Virus genome (UHGV): UHGV-0057186
Source of the DNA: a virus
Reading direction: 5' to 3' (one strand)
Length of the DNA: 64,000 bases
Shown: one piece after another, positions 12,487-35,742 of the stretch
Layout: every line of letters begins with the position of its first letter
How positions within the stretch are numbered: the first letter of the stretch is position 1
Notes under the pieces: generated by a model
Told to the model about the DNA's origin: nothing
The model's input: the letters and a program-made list of their open reading frames with translations, nothing else
Database searches by the model: none
Position numbers and translations under genes: made by a program

Positions 12487-12513
12487 TTTGTGTTCCTCCG
12501 TAGTTGATAGTTG

Positions 12514-12950: not shown

Positions 12951-13919
12951 TTATTTCAGAAGAGTAACCTCAGCGATTTCTTCCCAACCGTTTTTGTCGG
13001 TCATAATAAAGTCAGCAAGATAAAGAGCAGTACGCAGTGAAACATTGCGTAAACGATTAACATTGACTTTCATCCATGATAATGCTTTATAAGTTTCTTC
13101 ATCAGAAAGACCGCGTTTTTGCATCATGTCAGTTGAAAGAATAACATCTTCAACCCTGACCATAATTTCTTCATTAGTGTGAACACCCAAATCTAAATAA
13201 ACTGAGCGGGACACTAATGCTTGTAAATGTGGAGCAAGTTTAGTACCACGGTCTAATTCGCGGTCAATGTCAACGTTTGTGATAAAAACAATCGTTCCTT
13301 TAAATTCAAACTCACGCTCAATGCCTTTTTCTTCTAAGTAAGAAGACGCAGTACTCCAGCAGACTTTACGGGTCTCTCCAGTGTCCAGAGCGGCTTTTAG
13401 AAGATTAAGAATGTCCATATCAGAGAAAACATCCACATCATCAATCAAAAGGACAGAATTCTCTTCACGATTATTCCAAAGCTGCTCATAAAGACCAATA
13501 CCAGAGATTTTACCATTAATGCTTTTATATTCAATGTATCCAATATCATTTGCTTTATTTAAAGCTTTATCTAAAGAATACGTTTTACCAATACCTGCTG
13601 CGCCAGAGATAATTAATGAACGAATATTTCCATTAATAATACCATTCGTCATCATTCCCATAACATTAAATCTTTTATTAATGCGGGTTTTCATATCTTC
13701 ATACGATTCTTTAACTTCTTCAACTTTTACACCATCATATGAAATGTCTGATTTGTAAACCCAAACACCGCGACGTTTACCGTCAATTTCAACAAAAACT
13801 TTACCATCTCCTTGTGCATCTACCGGAGCATTATCTGGGAACCATTCGCCTAAAAGCTCAAAAGTTCCAGAGATTTCTTTACCGAAGTAGATACCCTTAT
13901 TGATAGTTACAGTTTTCAT
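12951..13919 (-). CDS. P-loop NTPase (AAA-like ATPase)
   Basis: Walker A GAAGIGKT and Walker B LLIDDVD; 322 aa; GGAG SD. Confidence 0.7.
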   Translation of the reverse strand: MKTVTINKGIYFGKEISGTFELLGEWFPDNAPVDAQGDGKVFVEIDGKRRGVWVYKSDISYDGVKVEEVKESYEDMKTRINKRFNVMGMMTNGIINGNIRSLIISGAAGIGKTYSLDKALNKANDIGYIEYKSINGKISGIGLYEQLWNNREENSVLLIDDVDVFSDMDILNLLKAALDTGETRKVCWSTASSYLEEKGIEREFEFKGTIVFITNVDIDRELDRGTKLAPHLQALVSRSVYLDLGVHTNEEIMVRVEDVILSTDMMQKRGLSDEETYKALSWMKVNVNRLRNVSLRTALYLADFIMTDKNGWEEIAEVTLLK

Positions 13920-13937
13920 TTTATTCTCCTTTGATTT

Positions 13938-13974
13938 GATAGGACTACTATAACATAGTCCTATCAGTTTGTAT
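13938..13974 (-). promoter_or_regulatory. promoter with 10-bp perfect inverted repeat around the -10 region
   Basis: GATAGGACTA-N8-TAGTCCTATC palindrome (13938-13965) with GTATAC -35-like hexamer at 13969-13974. Confidence 0.45.
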
Positions 13975-13976
13975 AC

Positions 13977-14177
13977 TTATTTTGACATTTCTTCGATGTC
14001 ACGACGATACCCGTCACGAACTTCACGAAGAGCTTCAAGGCCACACATAGGCTCGATACCAGTAATGTGAACTTGATTAATCTGATACTCTACATCTTCT
14101 AACTGAGCGAAAACATAACGACGTTCAGCTGCACAACCAGATTTAGCTTTACCGAAACGTTTATTCAAAGTAGTCAT
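13977..14177 (-). CDS. hypothetical protein (66 aa)
   Basis: GGAG SD; promoter upstream. Confidence 0.5.
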   Translation of the reverse strand: MTTLNKRFGKAKSGCAAERRYVFAQLEDVEYQINQVHITGIEPMCGLEALREVRDGYRRDIEEMSK

Positions 14178-14214
14178 TTTGTATCTCCAATTTACTCATT
14201 TGTTTTGATAGGTC

Positions 14215-14245
14215 TATAGTATCAACAACTACAGACCATGTAAAC
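14215..14245 (-). promoter_or_regulatory. early promoter cassette (GTTTAC / TACTAT)
   Basis: GTTTAC-N18-TACTAT with GGTCT/AGACC inverted repeat flanking the -10. Confidence 0.5.
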
Positions 14246-14248
14246 AAT

Positions 14249-14512
14249 TTATTTTAATTTTCGCCAAATTTTTACTGCTTCTCGCCTCGATACTTCTACG
14301 GCGCCAAGTTCTATAGCTTTTTGACGACGACTTGCACGTAAGTCATAATGTTTAATGCGTTTATCTTGAAACCAAGAACGTTTCATTCCTATTGCTTCTG
14401 CCATTTCGTGAAGCTCTTCAATATCTCCATCAGTGAACATATGACAATTTTTAGTTGGATGACCGCGAAGTTTCCATCCATGATTCATTAAAACATCTAC
14501 GTAAACTGTCAT
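14249..14512 (-). CDS. DUF4031-like protein (87 aa)
   Basis: MTVYVD...HGW...HMFTDGD..ELH..A...G....WFQ....HYDL pattern resembles the DUF4031 family; from memory, not searched. Confidence 0.5.
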   Translation of the reverse strand: MTVYVDVLMNHGWKLRGHPTKNCHMFTDGDIEELHEMAEAIGMKRSWFQDKRIKHYDLRASRRQKAIELGAVEVSRREAVKIWRKLK

Positions 14513-14658
14513 TGATTCTTCTCCAAATAAGTTTCGATAATTTTCTGGGCGAGATAAACCGCGTTATCTTCAGTTGCGTCTTCTAAGAAACTTTCAAAAC
14601 ACTCTGAAATTTCTTCTGTATCAATCAACTTTTTTACTTCAATTGGTGTAATTTTCAT
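14509..14658 (-). CDS. hypothetical small acidic protein (49 aa), not in ORF track
   Basis: ATG 14656-14658, clean 49-codon frame MKITPIEVKKLIDTEE..., stop overlaps next ATG (ATGA); promoter cassette upstream. Confidence 0.35.
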   Translation of the reverse strand: MKITPIEVKKLIDTEEISECFESFLEDATEDNAVYLAQKIIETYLEKNQ

Positions 14659-14693
14659 TTTGTTTTCCGTTTAAGTGTTTGTTTTGATAGTTG

Positions 14694-14724
14694 TATAGTA
14701 CCATAAAGCTTTATGCTTGTAAAC
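14694..14724 (-). promoter_or_regulatory. early promoter cassette (GTTTAC / TACTATA)
   Basis: GTTTAC-N18-TACTATA-CAACTATCAAAAC. Confidence 0.5.
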
Positions 14725-14748
14725 AGTTTTGTGAAAAATTTTTGAAAT

Positions 14749-14772
14749 AAAAAAGGGAGCCCGAAGGCTCCC
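14749..14772 (-). terminator. intrinsic terminator
   Basis: GGGAGCC-TTCG-GGCTCCC hairpin followed by TTTTTTATTTC on minus strand, 3 nt after stop of 14775..15788. Confidence 0.55.
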
Positions 14773-14774
14773 TA

Positions 14775-15788
14775 TCATTTATAATAGCTTCGGTGGTTTT
14801 CAAGATAAACCTTCTCAAGGAAGTCATCCCAGAAACCCATGTCTACTTTTTGCTGCATACCGTTCTTAGAAGCTTCAGTAGATGCTGCTTCTACTTGATC
14901 GACCACATCTTCCAAAAACTCTTGAACTGTTTTAAATGGATGTTTACCCAACTTCACGTCGAGAATAAATGGAGCATCTTGGAGTGGATAAACCAAGTCA
15001 CCAGTTTTGTAAATTTCCAATAGTTGGAGTCCACCACGGCAGGCATGGCTCAGAGCTTTCCAGTCAATGCCTTCATTGGCTTCGGCCTTACGAGCGCGTT
15101 CACCGTATTCAGCATCTAATTTGTTCAGTGACTGCTTAAGCTCAATAAGAGAAAGCGTTGTCTGATATTTACGACCCAACACAGTGTAGAACGTTTGTGG
15201 GCCTGTTTTCTCATGATTATGGAACACCCATTCACAGAATTCGTTTTCTGGAAGACGATGCTTAATATCTTCAACTTTAGTACGACGCTGCTTAATAGAA
15301 CCATCTTCTTGGTAATCAATCCATTGCTCAGGGATTTGATTAACTACTTTCAATACATCACGTAATGCAGCCAAACGAGAACCCTTGACGCCATATTTAG
15401 AAGCTTGCTTACGGACATATCCTAAATAGGATTTCATGTTAGTCGTATAAAAACGAGAACGGTTGTCTTGAATAAACTTCCACACATCAGGCAAATCAGA
15501 TTTAACCACTAGTTCAGGTGGAGTGTGAAGCATATCCAATGCTACGGTTTCACCATCTGCTGCTAATTTAAAGAAATATTTAAGACTGTATAGTTCATGG
15601 TCAATATCATCTTTAGTGTTTTTAGATGATGTGTTGTTAGTGTTTTTACTCATATGCTCTTTGACATTTCCGATAAGAATATCGCGAGCAGGAGGAACAA
15701 AGATTTCTTTAAAATCTACATCAGATTCTGGGGTAGAAGTTCCATAAAGATGACTACCAAAATAGCTTTTCATTACTGTTTTCATCAT
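14775..15788 (-). CDS. Pol-beta-superfamily nucleotidyltransferase-like protein (337 aa)
   Basis: N-terminal GSHLYGTSTPESDVD matches the G[GS]-x9-13-D-x-[DE] NTase signature; rest has no recognised motif. Confidence 0.65.
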   Translation of the reverse strand: MMKTVMKSYFGSHLYGTSTPESDVDFKEIFVPPARDILIGNVKEHMSKNTNNTSSKNTKDDIDHELYSLKYFFKLAADGETVALDMLHTPPELVVKSDLPDVWKFIQDNRSRFYTTNMKSYLGYVRKQASKYGVKGSRLAALRDVLKVVNQIPEQWIDYQEDGSIKQRRTKVEDIKHRLPENEFCEWVFHNHEKTGPQTFYTVLGRKYQTTLSLIELKQSLNKLDAEYGERARKAEANEGIDWKALSHACRGGLQLLEIYKTGDLVYPLQDAPFILDVKLGKHPFKTVQEFLEDVVDQVEAASTEASKNGMQQKVDMGFWDDFLEKVYLENHRSYYK

Positions 15789-25118: not shown

Positions 25119-25592
25119 TTATTTGAATGATTTGACGTACTGAATAGAACCTTTACTATTCACGAAAGCGATTTTACCATTTTTATTATACATGGTAGCA
25201 GTACGCTGATAGCCATAAGTTTGTTTACCAGATTGATAACCAACTAATGCGAAATTATCTTCACCCATTTTATTCTGTTTAGCGCGAATACGTTCATGAC
25301 CGTGTGCCATAAGAACCTTAGCATCACCAGTTGAAATTGATCTACGAGTTTTTTCATCTTCAACTGTATTAACAAAGTCGTCAAATGAATCAAATTTAGC
25401 ATGGGATTTATTATACAGTTTTCCATCTACTGCATAATTATATCCCTGTACATCCATCTCAACTTCTGTACCATCATCCAATACAGCAGTAATTTTTTGA
25501 CCTTTTTTAAATTTCAAAAGATCAGTAAAAGATTCAGCAATAATTTGAGAATTAATAGCTGCTTCAGTGATAAATTCTTGATATGTTTTCAT
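25119..25592 (-). CDS. internal-protein-like (capsid-targeting N-terminus)
   Basis: N-terminus MKTYQEFITEAA matches T4 internal protein capsid targeting sequence; 157 aa. Confidence 0.55.
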   Translation of the reverse strand: MKTYQEFITEAAINSQIIAESFTDLLKFKKGQKITAVLDDGTEVEMDVQGYNYAVDGKLYNKSHAKFDSFDDFVNTVEDEKTRRSISTGDAKVLMAHGHERIRAKQNKMGEDNFALVGYQSGKQTYGYQRTATMYNKNGKIAFVNSKGSIQYVKSFK

Positions 25593-25648
25593 ATGTTTCC
25601 TTTAAATGTAAATATTTTTGCCGTAATACTTGTACCAGTGTGGCTTCA

Positions 25649-26017
25649 TTAAAATTTTTCATCGAGTCGTTGTTGACTCAATTTAATAGCTGATTTGCAT
25701 GGATTATAATCATTTTTCCATTCTGCTGGAATATCGCTGATGTCAGGAACTTCAGTATCTTTTATACTAAACCCACGTTTTAAGCATTCCGTTATAATGT
25801 CTGATTGACGCTTTCGCAAAAATTCTAACTTATCGTAAAAGAACGTAACATGACCAGAGCCTAAAATAAACTCGGAAGATATTTTAAAATCTTTAACCCG
25901 CTTACCATTTGCCACATGTTTACGAACTATACCAAAAACACGCGGCAATTCACGATACTCAGCCATAAGATGTTGGTCGGTCAGTTCAGAAACAAGTGTT
26001 AAATTGATACGAGTCAT
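25649..26017 (-). CDS. denV: endonuclease V, pyrimidine dimer DNA glycosylase
   Basis: [12 protein letters not shown]...[16 protein letters not shown] matches T4 DenV; GGAGG SD. Confidence 0.9.
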
Positions 26018-26043
26018 AATTTCCTCCAAGTAGTTGATGAATG

Positions 26044-26074
26044 TATAGTATCAAAGTCCTTGGAGGAAGTAAAC
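26044..26074 (-). promoter_or_regulatory. early promoter cassette for denV
   Basis: GTTTAC-N18-TACTATA; spacer arm TTCCTCCAAG complementary to SD region. Confidence 0.55.
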
Positions 26075-26075
26075 A

Positions 26076-27316
<1,241 letters not shown>

Positions 27317-27320
<4 letters not shown>

Positions 27321-27805
27321 TTTAATTTCCTGCATTCAGTGATAAAGCTATTTAAATTTTGAGCATATTTCTTTTCATCATAAATCTTTTGCTGTCTGCG
27401 TAAACGCCATGGCATTTCAATGAACACGCACCATATTCCTGATAGTACTGCTGCTGTAAAAATATTAACAAGTATAATTAAAAGAATCCAATCTTCCGTT
27501 CTGCCTACTGGACTTTCTCCAAAGAAGCAAAATACAAATGATGTCACAGGAAAACTAATAATATACCACAGAATAACCTTCTTATCTGTGAACCAATCAG
27601 CGTTCGTTAACTTAGCACGACCATTTTGAATACACACGAATTTATCATCTGTTACAGTAGATGGCTTAACTGCTTGATATCCCATTCTAAACTCCCTAAT
27701 TAATCGTTTCTTTGTATCTTCAGAACAGCCGCTCCAGTCAACTCTATCGACTGAAATGCCATCGTCCCCATCATCTAAATCATACCAGCGAGTTTTTAAA
27801 ATCAT
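27317..27805 (-). CDS. membrane protein, e.x junction family
   Basis: two TM helices; C-terminal FITECRKLK tail; ATGA coupling to nudE. Confidence 0.55.
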
Positions 27806-29762: not shown

Positions 29763-29866
29763 AGTATTTCCTTAGGTTGATTAAGATTTAAAATCCGTAA
29801 AAGTAGTATTATACTCTATCATCAAGTTACAGGCTCATAATATCTCAATCATGAGCCTATGTAAAC

Positions 29867-35345: not shown

Positions 35346-35382
35346 TTTAGTTTCCATTCGATTGTTTTGTTTTGATAGGGTA

Positions 35383-35412
35383 ATAGTATCACAACTAAAA
35401 CCCTATGTAAAC
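35383..35412 (-). promoter_or_regulatory. early promoter cassette (GTTTAC / TACTAT)
   Basis: GTTTAC-N18-TACTAT with ATAGGG/CCCTAT inverted repeat. Confidence 0.5.
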
Positions 35413-35682: not shown

Positions 35683-35712
35683 TTTATTTTCCTAATTAAT
35701 TTTGATGAGATA

Positions 35713-35742
35713 ATAGTATCACTATCTCATCAGCATGTAAAC
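35713..35742 (-). promoter_or_regulatory. early promoter cassette (GTTTAC / TACTAT)
   Basis: GTTTAC-N18-TACTAT with GATGAGATA/TATCTCATC inverted repeat. Confidence 0.5.

Follow-up and report, generated by a model that had tools for sequence, protein, structure and literature searches.

Gating of translation by a hairpin has been experimentally established for the lysozyme gene e of bacteriophage T4 (McPheeters et al. 1986; reviewed in PMC3014915). Further hairpins that mask the ribosome-binding site (RBS) are known at soc, 49, I-TevI, I-TevII/III, segB and Aeh1 mobE (PMC3014915). In the soc/49/I-TevI group the Shine-Dalgarno (SD) sequence and/or the AUG is hidden on RNA from a distal promoter and freed on RNA from a proximal one, as we propose here for denV, the gene of endonuclease V, in a stretch of 64,000 nucleotides from the virus genome UHGV-0057186 (the window). 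The window is a Tequatrovirus (T4-like) segment, closest to Escherichia phage vB_Eco_EL (99.9% over the e-denV region), and it carries the e hairpin 800 nt upstream of denV. In both genes an upstream arm pairs with the SD, and the transcripts of the proximal promoter start inside the structure, without the 5' arm, at e and by prediction at denV. The gating function is proven for e and predicted for denV.

Early promoters with inverted repeats also occur in another setting: work by Krisch and colleagues (Repoila 1994) is said to describe T-even internal protein (IP) loci flanked by about 70 bp that hold a T4 early promoter and an overlapping inverted repeat. These IP-locus repeats have been cited as similar to the elements named PeSLs (PMC2839356). 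PeSLs, found in phages RB49 and phi1, have stem-loops, mostly located between -35 and -10 or overlapping -10, which were terminator- or attenuator-like in a reporter (Arbiol 2010, PMC2839356; Comeau 2014, PMC4122927). These stem-loops have been proposed to act as terminators or attenuators and as recombination sites and they exclude the SD, whereas the denV helix runs from the promoter spacer to the SD across a long loop and is predicted to alter access to the RBS. The nearest analogue outside phages is the CT-rich anti-SD insulator inside bacterial sigma-54 promoters (Levy et al. 2017, bioRxiv 10.1101/086108). There, as proposed for denV, promoter DNA encodes a pyrimidine-rich anti-SD that silences the downstream gene on read-through RNA only. 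The insulators are motifs of 3-5 nt within 25 nt of the SD, whereas the phage helices have 10-15 bp and belong to sigma-70-type early or MotA middle promoters; the insulators and the denV arms share no homology.

The denV promoter spacer is complementary to the denV Shine-Dalgarno sequence

On the minus strand, the region from the upstream stop codon to the denV start codon reads TAG t GTTTAC TTCCTCCAAG gacttTGa TACTAT acattc Atcaacta CTTGGAGGAA att ATG (Table 1). An earlier note made from the letters of this DNA, referred to below as the sequence-only reading, had claimed that two perfectly complementary arms enclose the -10 element and the expected start site in a 28-nt loop, and all its coordinates and sequences at denV were correct. 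The start site is predicted from the promoter consensus, with the geometry of T4 early promoters, in which the -10 element spans -12 to -7 (PMC1524935). The same rule correctly gives the mapped start of T4 promoter P1 at gene 1, and the homologous place in phage fPS-90 bears an annotated (predicted) early promoter. RNA started at the predicted position 26038 would be without the 5' arm and would have a leader of 21 nt.

Promoters were searched with the pattern GTTTAC-N17/18-TAnnnT (TG). The scan with GTTTAC-N18-TAnnnT found the denV promoter together with about 15 others of its type; each of them is on the minus strand and lies shortly before an open reading frame (ORF). A generic sigma-70 scan misses the denV promoter because the T4 early -35 element is GTTTAC, not TTGACA. 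Rfam covariance models gave no match in 25500-27500 at E-values up to 1, and the denV hairpin did not answer to the pattern of a Rho-independent terminator (GC-rich stem, 3-8-nt loop, U-tract). Two other readings of the hairpin were rejected: that of a terminator, on account of the 28-nt loop, the missing U-tract and the lack of a call in the terminator scan, and that of a protein-binding palindrome, on account of arm sequences that vary by lineage while the complementarity stays.

Predicted folding differs between read-through and promoter-initiated denV RNA

Folding in silico, which the sequence-only reading had proposed as a check, separated the two kinds of denV RNA. A 75-nt read-through RNA folded into exactly the TTCCTCCAAG/CTTGGAGGAA helix (-18.5 kcal/mol, z = -3.05), and the promoter-initiated leader reached -2.1 kcal/mol (z = +1.5), being less structured than its own shuffles. 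RBS opening cost, defined as the free-energy cost of freeing positions -15 to +3, was 9-12 kcal/mol on the read-through RNA versus about 3 kcal/mol on the locally started RNA (12.0 versus 3.0 in the promoter survey described below). In the null model the part upstream of +1 was shuffled (mononucleotide shuffles in the comparison of denV versions), and 0-4% of the trials were as costly as the observed denV value.

Gene e served as the benchmark. Its leader hairpin is present in the window (26843-26872), as the sequence-only reading had said, and the leader is identical to that of a T4 record. Opening of the e RBS cost 15.7 kcal/mol on read-through RNA versus 3.9 and 1.5 kcal/mol from the two late starts, which places the denV costs on the same scale. 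At denV, as in the gene e kind, the 3' strand contains the SD, the start predicted from the consensus lies 3' of the masking arm, and compensating changes are found. The late internal promoter (TATAAATA) that marks all reviewed T4 cases is absent from denV. Since the internal promoters are early or middle instead of late, we call denV an extension of the gene e kind and not the same case. The promoters inside the e hairpin are late (gp55) and silencing is early, whereas the denV promoter is of the early sigma-70 type and silencing would hit middle and late read-through. Unlike at e, the 5' arm of denV lies inside the promoter spacer (in the discriminator in other genera), which packs promoter and masking arm together into one compact unit.

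The pairing is conserved with compensating changes in relatives

Upstream regions of denV were collected from IMG/VR and from 14 GenBank phages of other genera, giving 25 distinct versions, and a recognisable early promoter was present in 23 of them. In 21-22 of these 23, RBS opening cost 9-20 kcal/mol on read-through, 1-3 on local and 3-7 on shuffled RNA, and an arm upstream of +1 pairs with the SD. Arm complementarity in related phages, on which the sequence-only reading had staked its claim, is therefore preserved, and the conserved pairing spans at least eight Tevenvirinae genera, T4 included. In T4 the same place reads GTTTAC a TCTCCTGTAG ... CTACAGGAGA ... ATG. The distant denV homologues (L014-L080, about 40% identity, marine and other phages) were uninformative, having TTG starts that overlap the upstream gene. 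AF158101, instead of OL964735, was used as the wild-type T4 reference; in OL964735.1 (T4 clone T4_3t3) an evolved deletion at 1884-1900 removes the denV promoter and hairpin together with the first ~16 codons and joins what is left of denV to the end of ipII.

Each lineage has its own pair of arm sequences. These are TTCCTCCAAG/CTTGGAGGAA in the window and in Mosigvirus SQ17, TCTCCTGTAG/CTACAGGAGA in T4 and the JS98 group, ATCTCCGTTTGT/ACAAACGGAGAT in CC31, TTCTCCTGTAGATG/CATCTACAGGAGAA in STP4-a, and TCTCCGTGTTGATG/CATCAACATGGAGA in Ursula (14 bp with one G-U). The helix has 10 perfect bp in the window and 10-14 bp in other genera, and positions beyond the SD core covary. In IME08, PEi26, P896, P545, myPSH1140, L011 and L012 the 5' arm has been relocated to the end of the -10 element and the discriminator (for example TAGTGTTCTC/GAGAACACTA), where it remains paired with the SD and again does not extend past +1. 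Two independent arm placements with the same outcome are hard to explain other than by selection for SD masking on RNAs started upstream. In Pseudotevenvirus-type phages (Miller, Fraggle), denV is without such a promoter and is preceded by an intrinsic terminator, which is what would be expected if the helix serves to deal with read-through.

A MAFFT alignment of whole promoter-leader regions left the GGAG cores out of register and was not used for pair counts. The counts come from a pseudo-alignment in which 19 spacer-type arm pairs were joined by an artificial GAAA linker, with the anchoring done by the author; because an anchored alignment leans towards structure, shuffled and slid controls are given with it. 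In this alignment 89% of the cells were paired versus 70% in shuffles (0/500), and 42 cells were changed on both sides versus 17 in shuffles (0/500), with compensatory events fewer than cells because rows are related and whole cassettes have been swapped by recombination. When the partner was slid by 1-3 columns, pairing was only 42-57%. Changes on both sides were present at 7 of the 11 pairs. The sequence-only reading had taken differences among paralogous sites in the window as covariation, which in the strict sense they are not; covariation is real at the orthologous denV loci. Its view that the denV hairpin has gene e architecture is supported, and the hairpin is clearly under selection. 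The denV structure and its selection are well supported.

Promoter-associated hairpins fall into two kinds

The pairing of each promoter's own 5' and downstream parts had a mean of -12.5 kcal/mol versus -8.1 kcal/mol with the downstream parts of other promoters (permutation p < 5e-5), and promoter-associated inverted repeats are a real feature because own-part pairing exceeds cross-promoter pairing. The window has 27 perfect inverted repeats of 9 bp or more versus 13.7 +/- 3.7 in shuffles, and 4 of the 27 sit in the approximately 2% of the sequence that lies between early or middle promoters and start codons. The hairpins fall into two kinds, one flanking the -10 element and one masking the RBS.

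RBS masking exceeded the shuffle null at four of 15 promoters, those of denV, regB, nrdC.8 and gene 1, with about 0.3 expected at p <= 0.02. The spacer-to-SD helices of regB and nrdC.8 are stronger than that of denV. At regB, opening of the RBS cost 20.0 versus 3.6 kcal/mol (null 6.1 +/- 1.7); the hairpin sequence is identical in T4, and the arms occur in three versions in relatives, two of them with 14 and 11 perfect bp. The regB early promoter is shut off after 2-3 min, and RegB is further limited by cutting its own SD (PMC3014915). At nrdC.8 the cost was 17.6 versus 3.6 kcal/mol (null 4.3 +/- 2.0). One lineage of relatives has compensated nrdC.8 arms and another has a -10-flanking hairpin instead, so gating at nrdC.8 is not universal.

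At gene 1, opening cost 16.6 versus 5.2 kcal/mol with the AUG masked; when transcripts of the late genes 4-2-3 read through, the helix would hide this AUG. T4 carries two transitions in the 5' arm of gene 1, each of which yields a G-U pair. The start of T4 middle promoter P1 has been mapped at 75393 (PMC2988021 Table 1), 19 nt ahead of the ATG of T4 gene 1 (75374), and coincides with the predicted +1, inside the loop. Gene 1 is the sole site where a measured start confirms the geometry. The design is seen with all three T4 promoter classes, late at e, middle at gene 1 and early at denV, regB and nrdC.8.

In CC31, two of 11 promoters (denV and tRNA.4) qualified and that of regB did not, which indicates that the masking device is gene-specific, with denV as its most conserved user. 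Weak SD matches of 5-6 bp at e.8, mobD.5 and 55.6 in the window were within the shuffle range. The inhibitory structures of translation initiation regions in the 2010 T4 review (PMC3014915) do not include denV, regB, nrdC.8 or gene 1, some of which older print literature may name. The soc/49/I-TevI group uses late (or late/middle) proximal promoters, whereas those of denV, regB and nrdC.8 are early and that of gene 1 is middle.

Table 1. Coordinates of the promoters, hairpin arms and genes in the window
Feature	Position	Strand	Remark
denV -35 GTTTAC, T4-type early promoter	26074-26069	minus	promoter scan; same cassette in T4
denV 5' arm TTCCTCCAAG (anti-SD)	26068-26059	minus	first 10 nt of the 18-nt promoter spacer
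denV hairpin loop, 28 nt	26058-26031	minus	contains extended -10 and predicted +1
denV extended -10	26053-26045	minus	TG 26053-26052, A, TACTAT 26050-26045; inside loop
denV predicted +1 (A)	26038	minus	7th nt past -10; inside loop; T4 early promoter geometry
denV 3' arm CTTGGAGGAA with SD GGAGG (26027-26023)	26030-26021	minus	perfect complement of TTCCTCCAAG, 10 bp
denV (endonuclease V) ORF	25649-26017	minus	ATG 26017-26015; 122 amino acids
IP-like ORF, 93 amino acids (MKTYSEF...)	26076-26357	minus	TAG stop 26078-26076, 1 nt ahead of denV -35
gene e leader	26876-26843	minus	e ATG at 26842; established case
gene e late promoters TATAAATA	26876-26869 and 26863-26856	minus	
gene e 5' arm AAUACCUUC	26872-26864	minus	
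gene e 3' arm GGAGGUAUU	26851-26843	minus	
regB early promoter and masked RBS	22969-22912	minus	ATG 22912
regB arms TTTTCCTCTTGACTG / CAGTTAAGAGGAGAA	22963-22949 (spacer) / 22931-22917 (SD)	minus	15 bp, 2 G-U
nrdC.8 early promoter and masked RBS	12544-12486	minus	ATG 12486
nrdC.8 arms TGTTCCTCTGTGG / CTACGGAGGAACA	12533-12521 / 12503-12491	minus	13 bp, 2 G-U
gene 1 (dNMP kinase) middle promoter	37232-37170	minus	TGCTT MotA box, no -35; TATAAT 37208-37203
gene 1 arms AGTTTCATGTGTT / AACACATGAAACT	37220-37208 / 37182-37170	minus	13 bp perfect; 3' arm covers ATG 37177-37175
nrdC.10 promoter hairpin GATAGGACTA/TAGTCCTATC	13938-13965	minus	flanks -10, RBS uninvolved; opening 0.8 vs 0.4 kcal/mol
IP-like ORF promoter hairpin TGATGAGATA/TATCTCATCA	35703-35732	minus	flanks -10, RBS uninvolved
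second IP-like ORF promoter hairpin ATAGGG/CCCTAT	35375-35406	minus	flanks -10, RBS uninvolved
66-amino-acid ORF promoter hairpin GGTCT/AGACC	14211-14237	minus	flanks -10, RBS uninvolved

Hairpins flanking the -10 element

Hairpins whose arms flank the -10 element and whose 3' arm ends before +1 were found at six promoters, including those of trna.4 and mobD.2. Their RBS was equally open in read-through and local RNA (0.8-3.5 kcal/mol, p > 0.5 versus shuffles). The sequence-only reading had listed 13938-13965, 35705-35732, 35377-35408 and 14211-14238 as further sites with the denV layout. The repeats exist there with the -10 element in the loop, and the coordinates were about right (35377-35408 is 2 nt off from 35375-35406; the other two shifted sites were found at 35703-35732 and 14211-14237). 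The 3' arm at these four sites lies between -10 and +1, off the SD, and their RBS opening costs of 0.8-2.3 kcal/mol are the same as in shuffles, so that the claimed gating did not hold. Its wider idea that RBS-masking gating is reused fails at the early sites it had listed and is predicted to apply at regB, nrdC.8 and gene 1, which it had missed.

These four sites match the PeSL and IP-locus cassettes in that they join an early promoter to a stem-loop among small accessory ORFs, in hyperplastic regions and with cassette-like spread. The stem-loop lies in or overlaps the early promoter at all four, and the RBS is uninvolved; at denV only the 5' arm falls inside the promoter, and the 3' arm is the SD itself. 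Gain, loss and shuffling of genes among close relatives, another PeSL trait, is seen in extra ORFs, in IP-like ORFs unlike those of T4 and in the same cassette standing before different genes.

Several side observations concern these cassettes. At 13900-14810 on the minus strand, three promoter cassettes stand in tandem (14724, 14245, 13976) with two small ORFs of 49 and 66 amino acids that are absent from T4. In T4 a cassette of the 14724 type stands directly before nrdC.10, a pattern typical of cassette-mediated gene gain or loss. At the trna.4 promoter (window 35111) the 3' arm TACCCTAT is as in T4, and the 5' arm is ATAGGG by the -35 element in T4 versus GGGGTA by the TG in the window; since the 5' arm takes a different spacer position, this hairpin appears to have been rebuilt and not inherited base for base. 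Another early-type promoter (GTTTAC ... TATTAT) at 29831-29866, minus strand, has AGGCTC/GAGCCT around its -10 element and no ORF start near; a second TATAAT-like box follows, and a tRNA or small-RNA region may be transcribed from this site. The same initial transcribed sequence, ATCAACTAC, follows many early promoters (for example 26031-26038, 12500-12508 and the 30150 region). Since TATCA in the start region and TGATA in the extended -10 are reverse complements, the promoter consensus itself contains a weak generic inverted repeat around -10.

The denV neighbourhood

The gene order on the minus strand is nudE, e (lysozyme, 26354-26842), the 93-amino-acid IP-like ORF and denV. T4 carries ipIII and ipII between e and denV in place of the IP-like ORF. 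The e stop codon and the ATG of the IP-like ORF share letters (ATGA, 26354-26357), so the IP-like gene is directly coupled to e here, and T4 ipIII comes after an 87-nt gap. On the minus strand, the terminator scan called no terminator-like site in the interval from e to denV, and since the upstream ORFs are also contiguous, read-through into denV is plausible; such transcripts would enter via the IP-like ORF.

The 3' end of denV is frameshifted and the C-terminal part is lost, owing to a run of five A (25659-25655, gatgaaaaatttta) where L001, L002 and IsaacDaniel have six A; relatives encode 138 amino acids. Either the gene has become a pseudogene or the homopolymer was misread in sequencing.

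Discussion

We propose that the early promoter and leader of denV probably form a self-insulating cassette, in which read-through RNA is silenced and RNA from the gene's own promoter is translated. RNA entering from the e/IP-like operon, begun at the e late promoters or at earlier upstream promoters, would carry both arms; on such RNA the 10-bp helix would hide the denV SD and block 30S binding, and denV would stay untranslated. Polymerase starting at the denV early promoter would begin in the loop (~26038), and its RNA, without the 5' arm and with an unusually unstructured leader, would be translated. The outcome would be that DenV synthesis is confined to the few minutes of early promoter firing and uncoupled from the abundant late e/IP message. 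In this respect denV would mirror gene e, which goes untranslated on early read-through RNA and is expressed from the late promoters in its own hairpin. T4 omics data (PMC9697503 supplements) list denV, regB and nrdC.8 with early RNA and early protein, and e, ipIII, ipII and gene 1 with early RNA and late protein. This is compatible with, and not diagnostic of, long RNAs whose cistrons are translated at different times.

Several observations weigh against the silencing proposal. Early promoter activity alone would also explain the omics data, and with only 8 nt from the upstream stop to the 5' arm, a terminating ribosome could melt part of the helix, in which case silencing may be leaky. The helix itself is only 10 bp long with a 28-nt loop, and the denV shuffle test is significant and not extreme (4% of shuffles in one run, 0/60 in another). 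Sense-minus-antisense stability favours the sense strand by -2.7 kcal/mol in promoter regions versus -1.8 kcal/mol for the genomic background; sense exceeded antisense 42:19 in the comparison of stability and G-U pairs, and random windows of the same strand are biased alike. Among the relatives, several differences that look compensating may be one cassette swap and not independent paired mutations, and the rule is broken by phage 212 (3.1 kcal/mol) and by L001 (8.5 kcal/mol, not significant).

The denV repeat might instead be another cassette of the PeSL or IP-locus type, working as an attenuator, a 3'-end stabiliser or a recombination module, with an incidental overlap of the SD. The denV gene does lie inside an IP locus, -10-flanking hairpins are common in the window, the type is described for RB49/phi1 and T-even IP loci with terminator-like behaviour in a reporter (PMC2839356, PMC4122927), the same tatagacctatcaactac module precedes denV, regB and nrdC.8 in different phages, and in L001/IsaacDaniel an ipII-type -10-flanking hairpin stands upstream of denV. 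We regard this explanation as unlikely: the denV 3' arm is always on the SD even as the 5' arm shifts between spacer and discriminator, the loop length, missing U-tract and lack of a terminator call speak against it, and -10-flanking hairpins do not change the RBS cost, whereas denV, regB, nrdC.8 and gene 1 are far outside the null. Pure chance, in which a pyrimidine-rich spacer happens to pair with a purine-rich SD, is hardly tenable. Short CT-rich runs can pair with any SD, as the weak matches at e.8, mobD.5 and 55.6 illustrate, but here the pairing is perfect over 10 bp, reaches 10-14 bp in other genera, covaries outside the SD core and is equalled by few shuffles. Both explanations are disfavoured because, despite moving arms, the 3' arm is constantly the RBS and the 5' arm is constantly upstream of +1.

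Two further explanations leave the helix a role in translation or RNA stability. Under translational coupling, denV on long RNAs would be translated only once a ribosome ending the upstream ORF has melted the helix. In the window, T4 and CC31 the upstream stop is indeed separated from the 5' arm by 6-10 nt, and this distance approximates that to the 3' edge of the footprint of a terminating ribosome. Coupling nevertheless looks distinctly unlikely, as the 5' arm is fully outside the upstream ORF with the -35 element between arm and stop, whereas classical coupling arms lie in the upstream coding region; D-type lineages have their 5' arm ~30 nt past the stop, and in T4 DenV is an early protein versus the late proteins IPII, IPIII and e. 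Alternatively, the helix might mainly shield the GGAG of the SD on long RNA from RegB or another RNase and so keep polycistronic RNA stable for the genes that follow. RegB cleaves intergenic SDs at GGAG, and secondary structure inhibits it; in vivo the SD of T4 denV resists RegB (PMC1702504), and the regB SD, a known RegB target (PMC3014915), has the strongest such hairpin. Durand et al., however, ascribed the denV resistance to the sequence 3' of GGAG, and an A-rich tail graft made it cleavable in vivo (PMC1702504); the gene 1 helix covers the AUG and not GGAG. Shielding as the main role is thus improbable, and protection and translational silencing are not mutually exclusive. Coupling and RegB shielding may both coexist with silencing.

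Beyond denV, we suggest more tentatively that a promoter-encoded anti-RBS may be a portable design of the Tevenvirinae, by which denV, regB, nrdC.8, gene 1/P1 and CC31 tRNA.4 would be translated only from RNA of their own promoters. If so, each cistron on the long overlapping transcripts of T4 would have its own temporal licence, the neighbours e and denV would be reciprocally gated on the same RNA (e silent early, denV silent late), and regB would gain a third layer of control over a tightly limited nuclease. For T4 genes on such transcripts, RNA abundance alone cannot account for the timing of proteins. A promoter-encoded anti-RBS would explain how DenV, a repair enzyme, and RegB, a dangerous nuclease, are restricted to the first minutes despite later read-through, and the lysozyme mechanism would here operate in the opposite temporal direction. 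Splitting RBS-masking from -10-flanking hairpins matters for the annotation of T4-like genomes, for comparing RNA-seq with proteomics and for the design of insulated cassettes.

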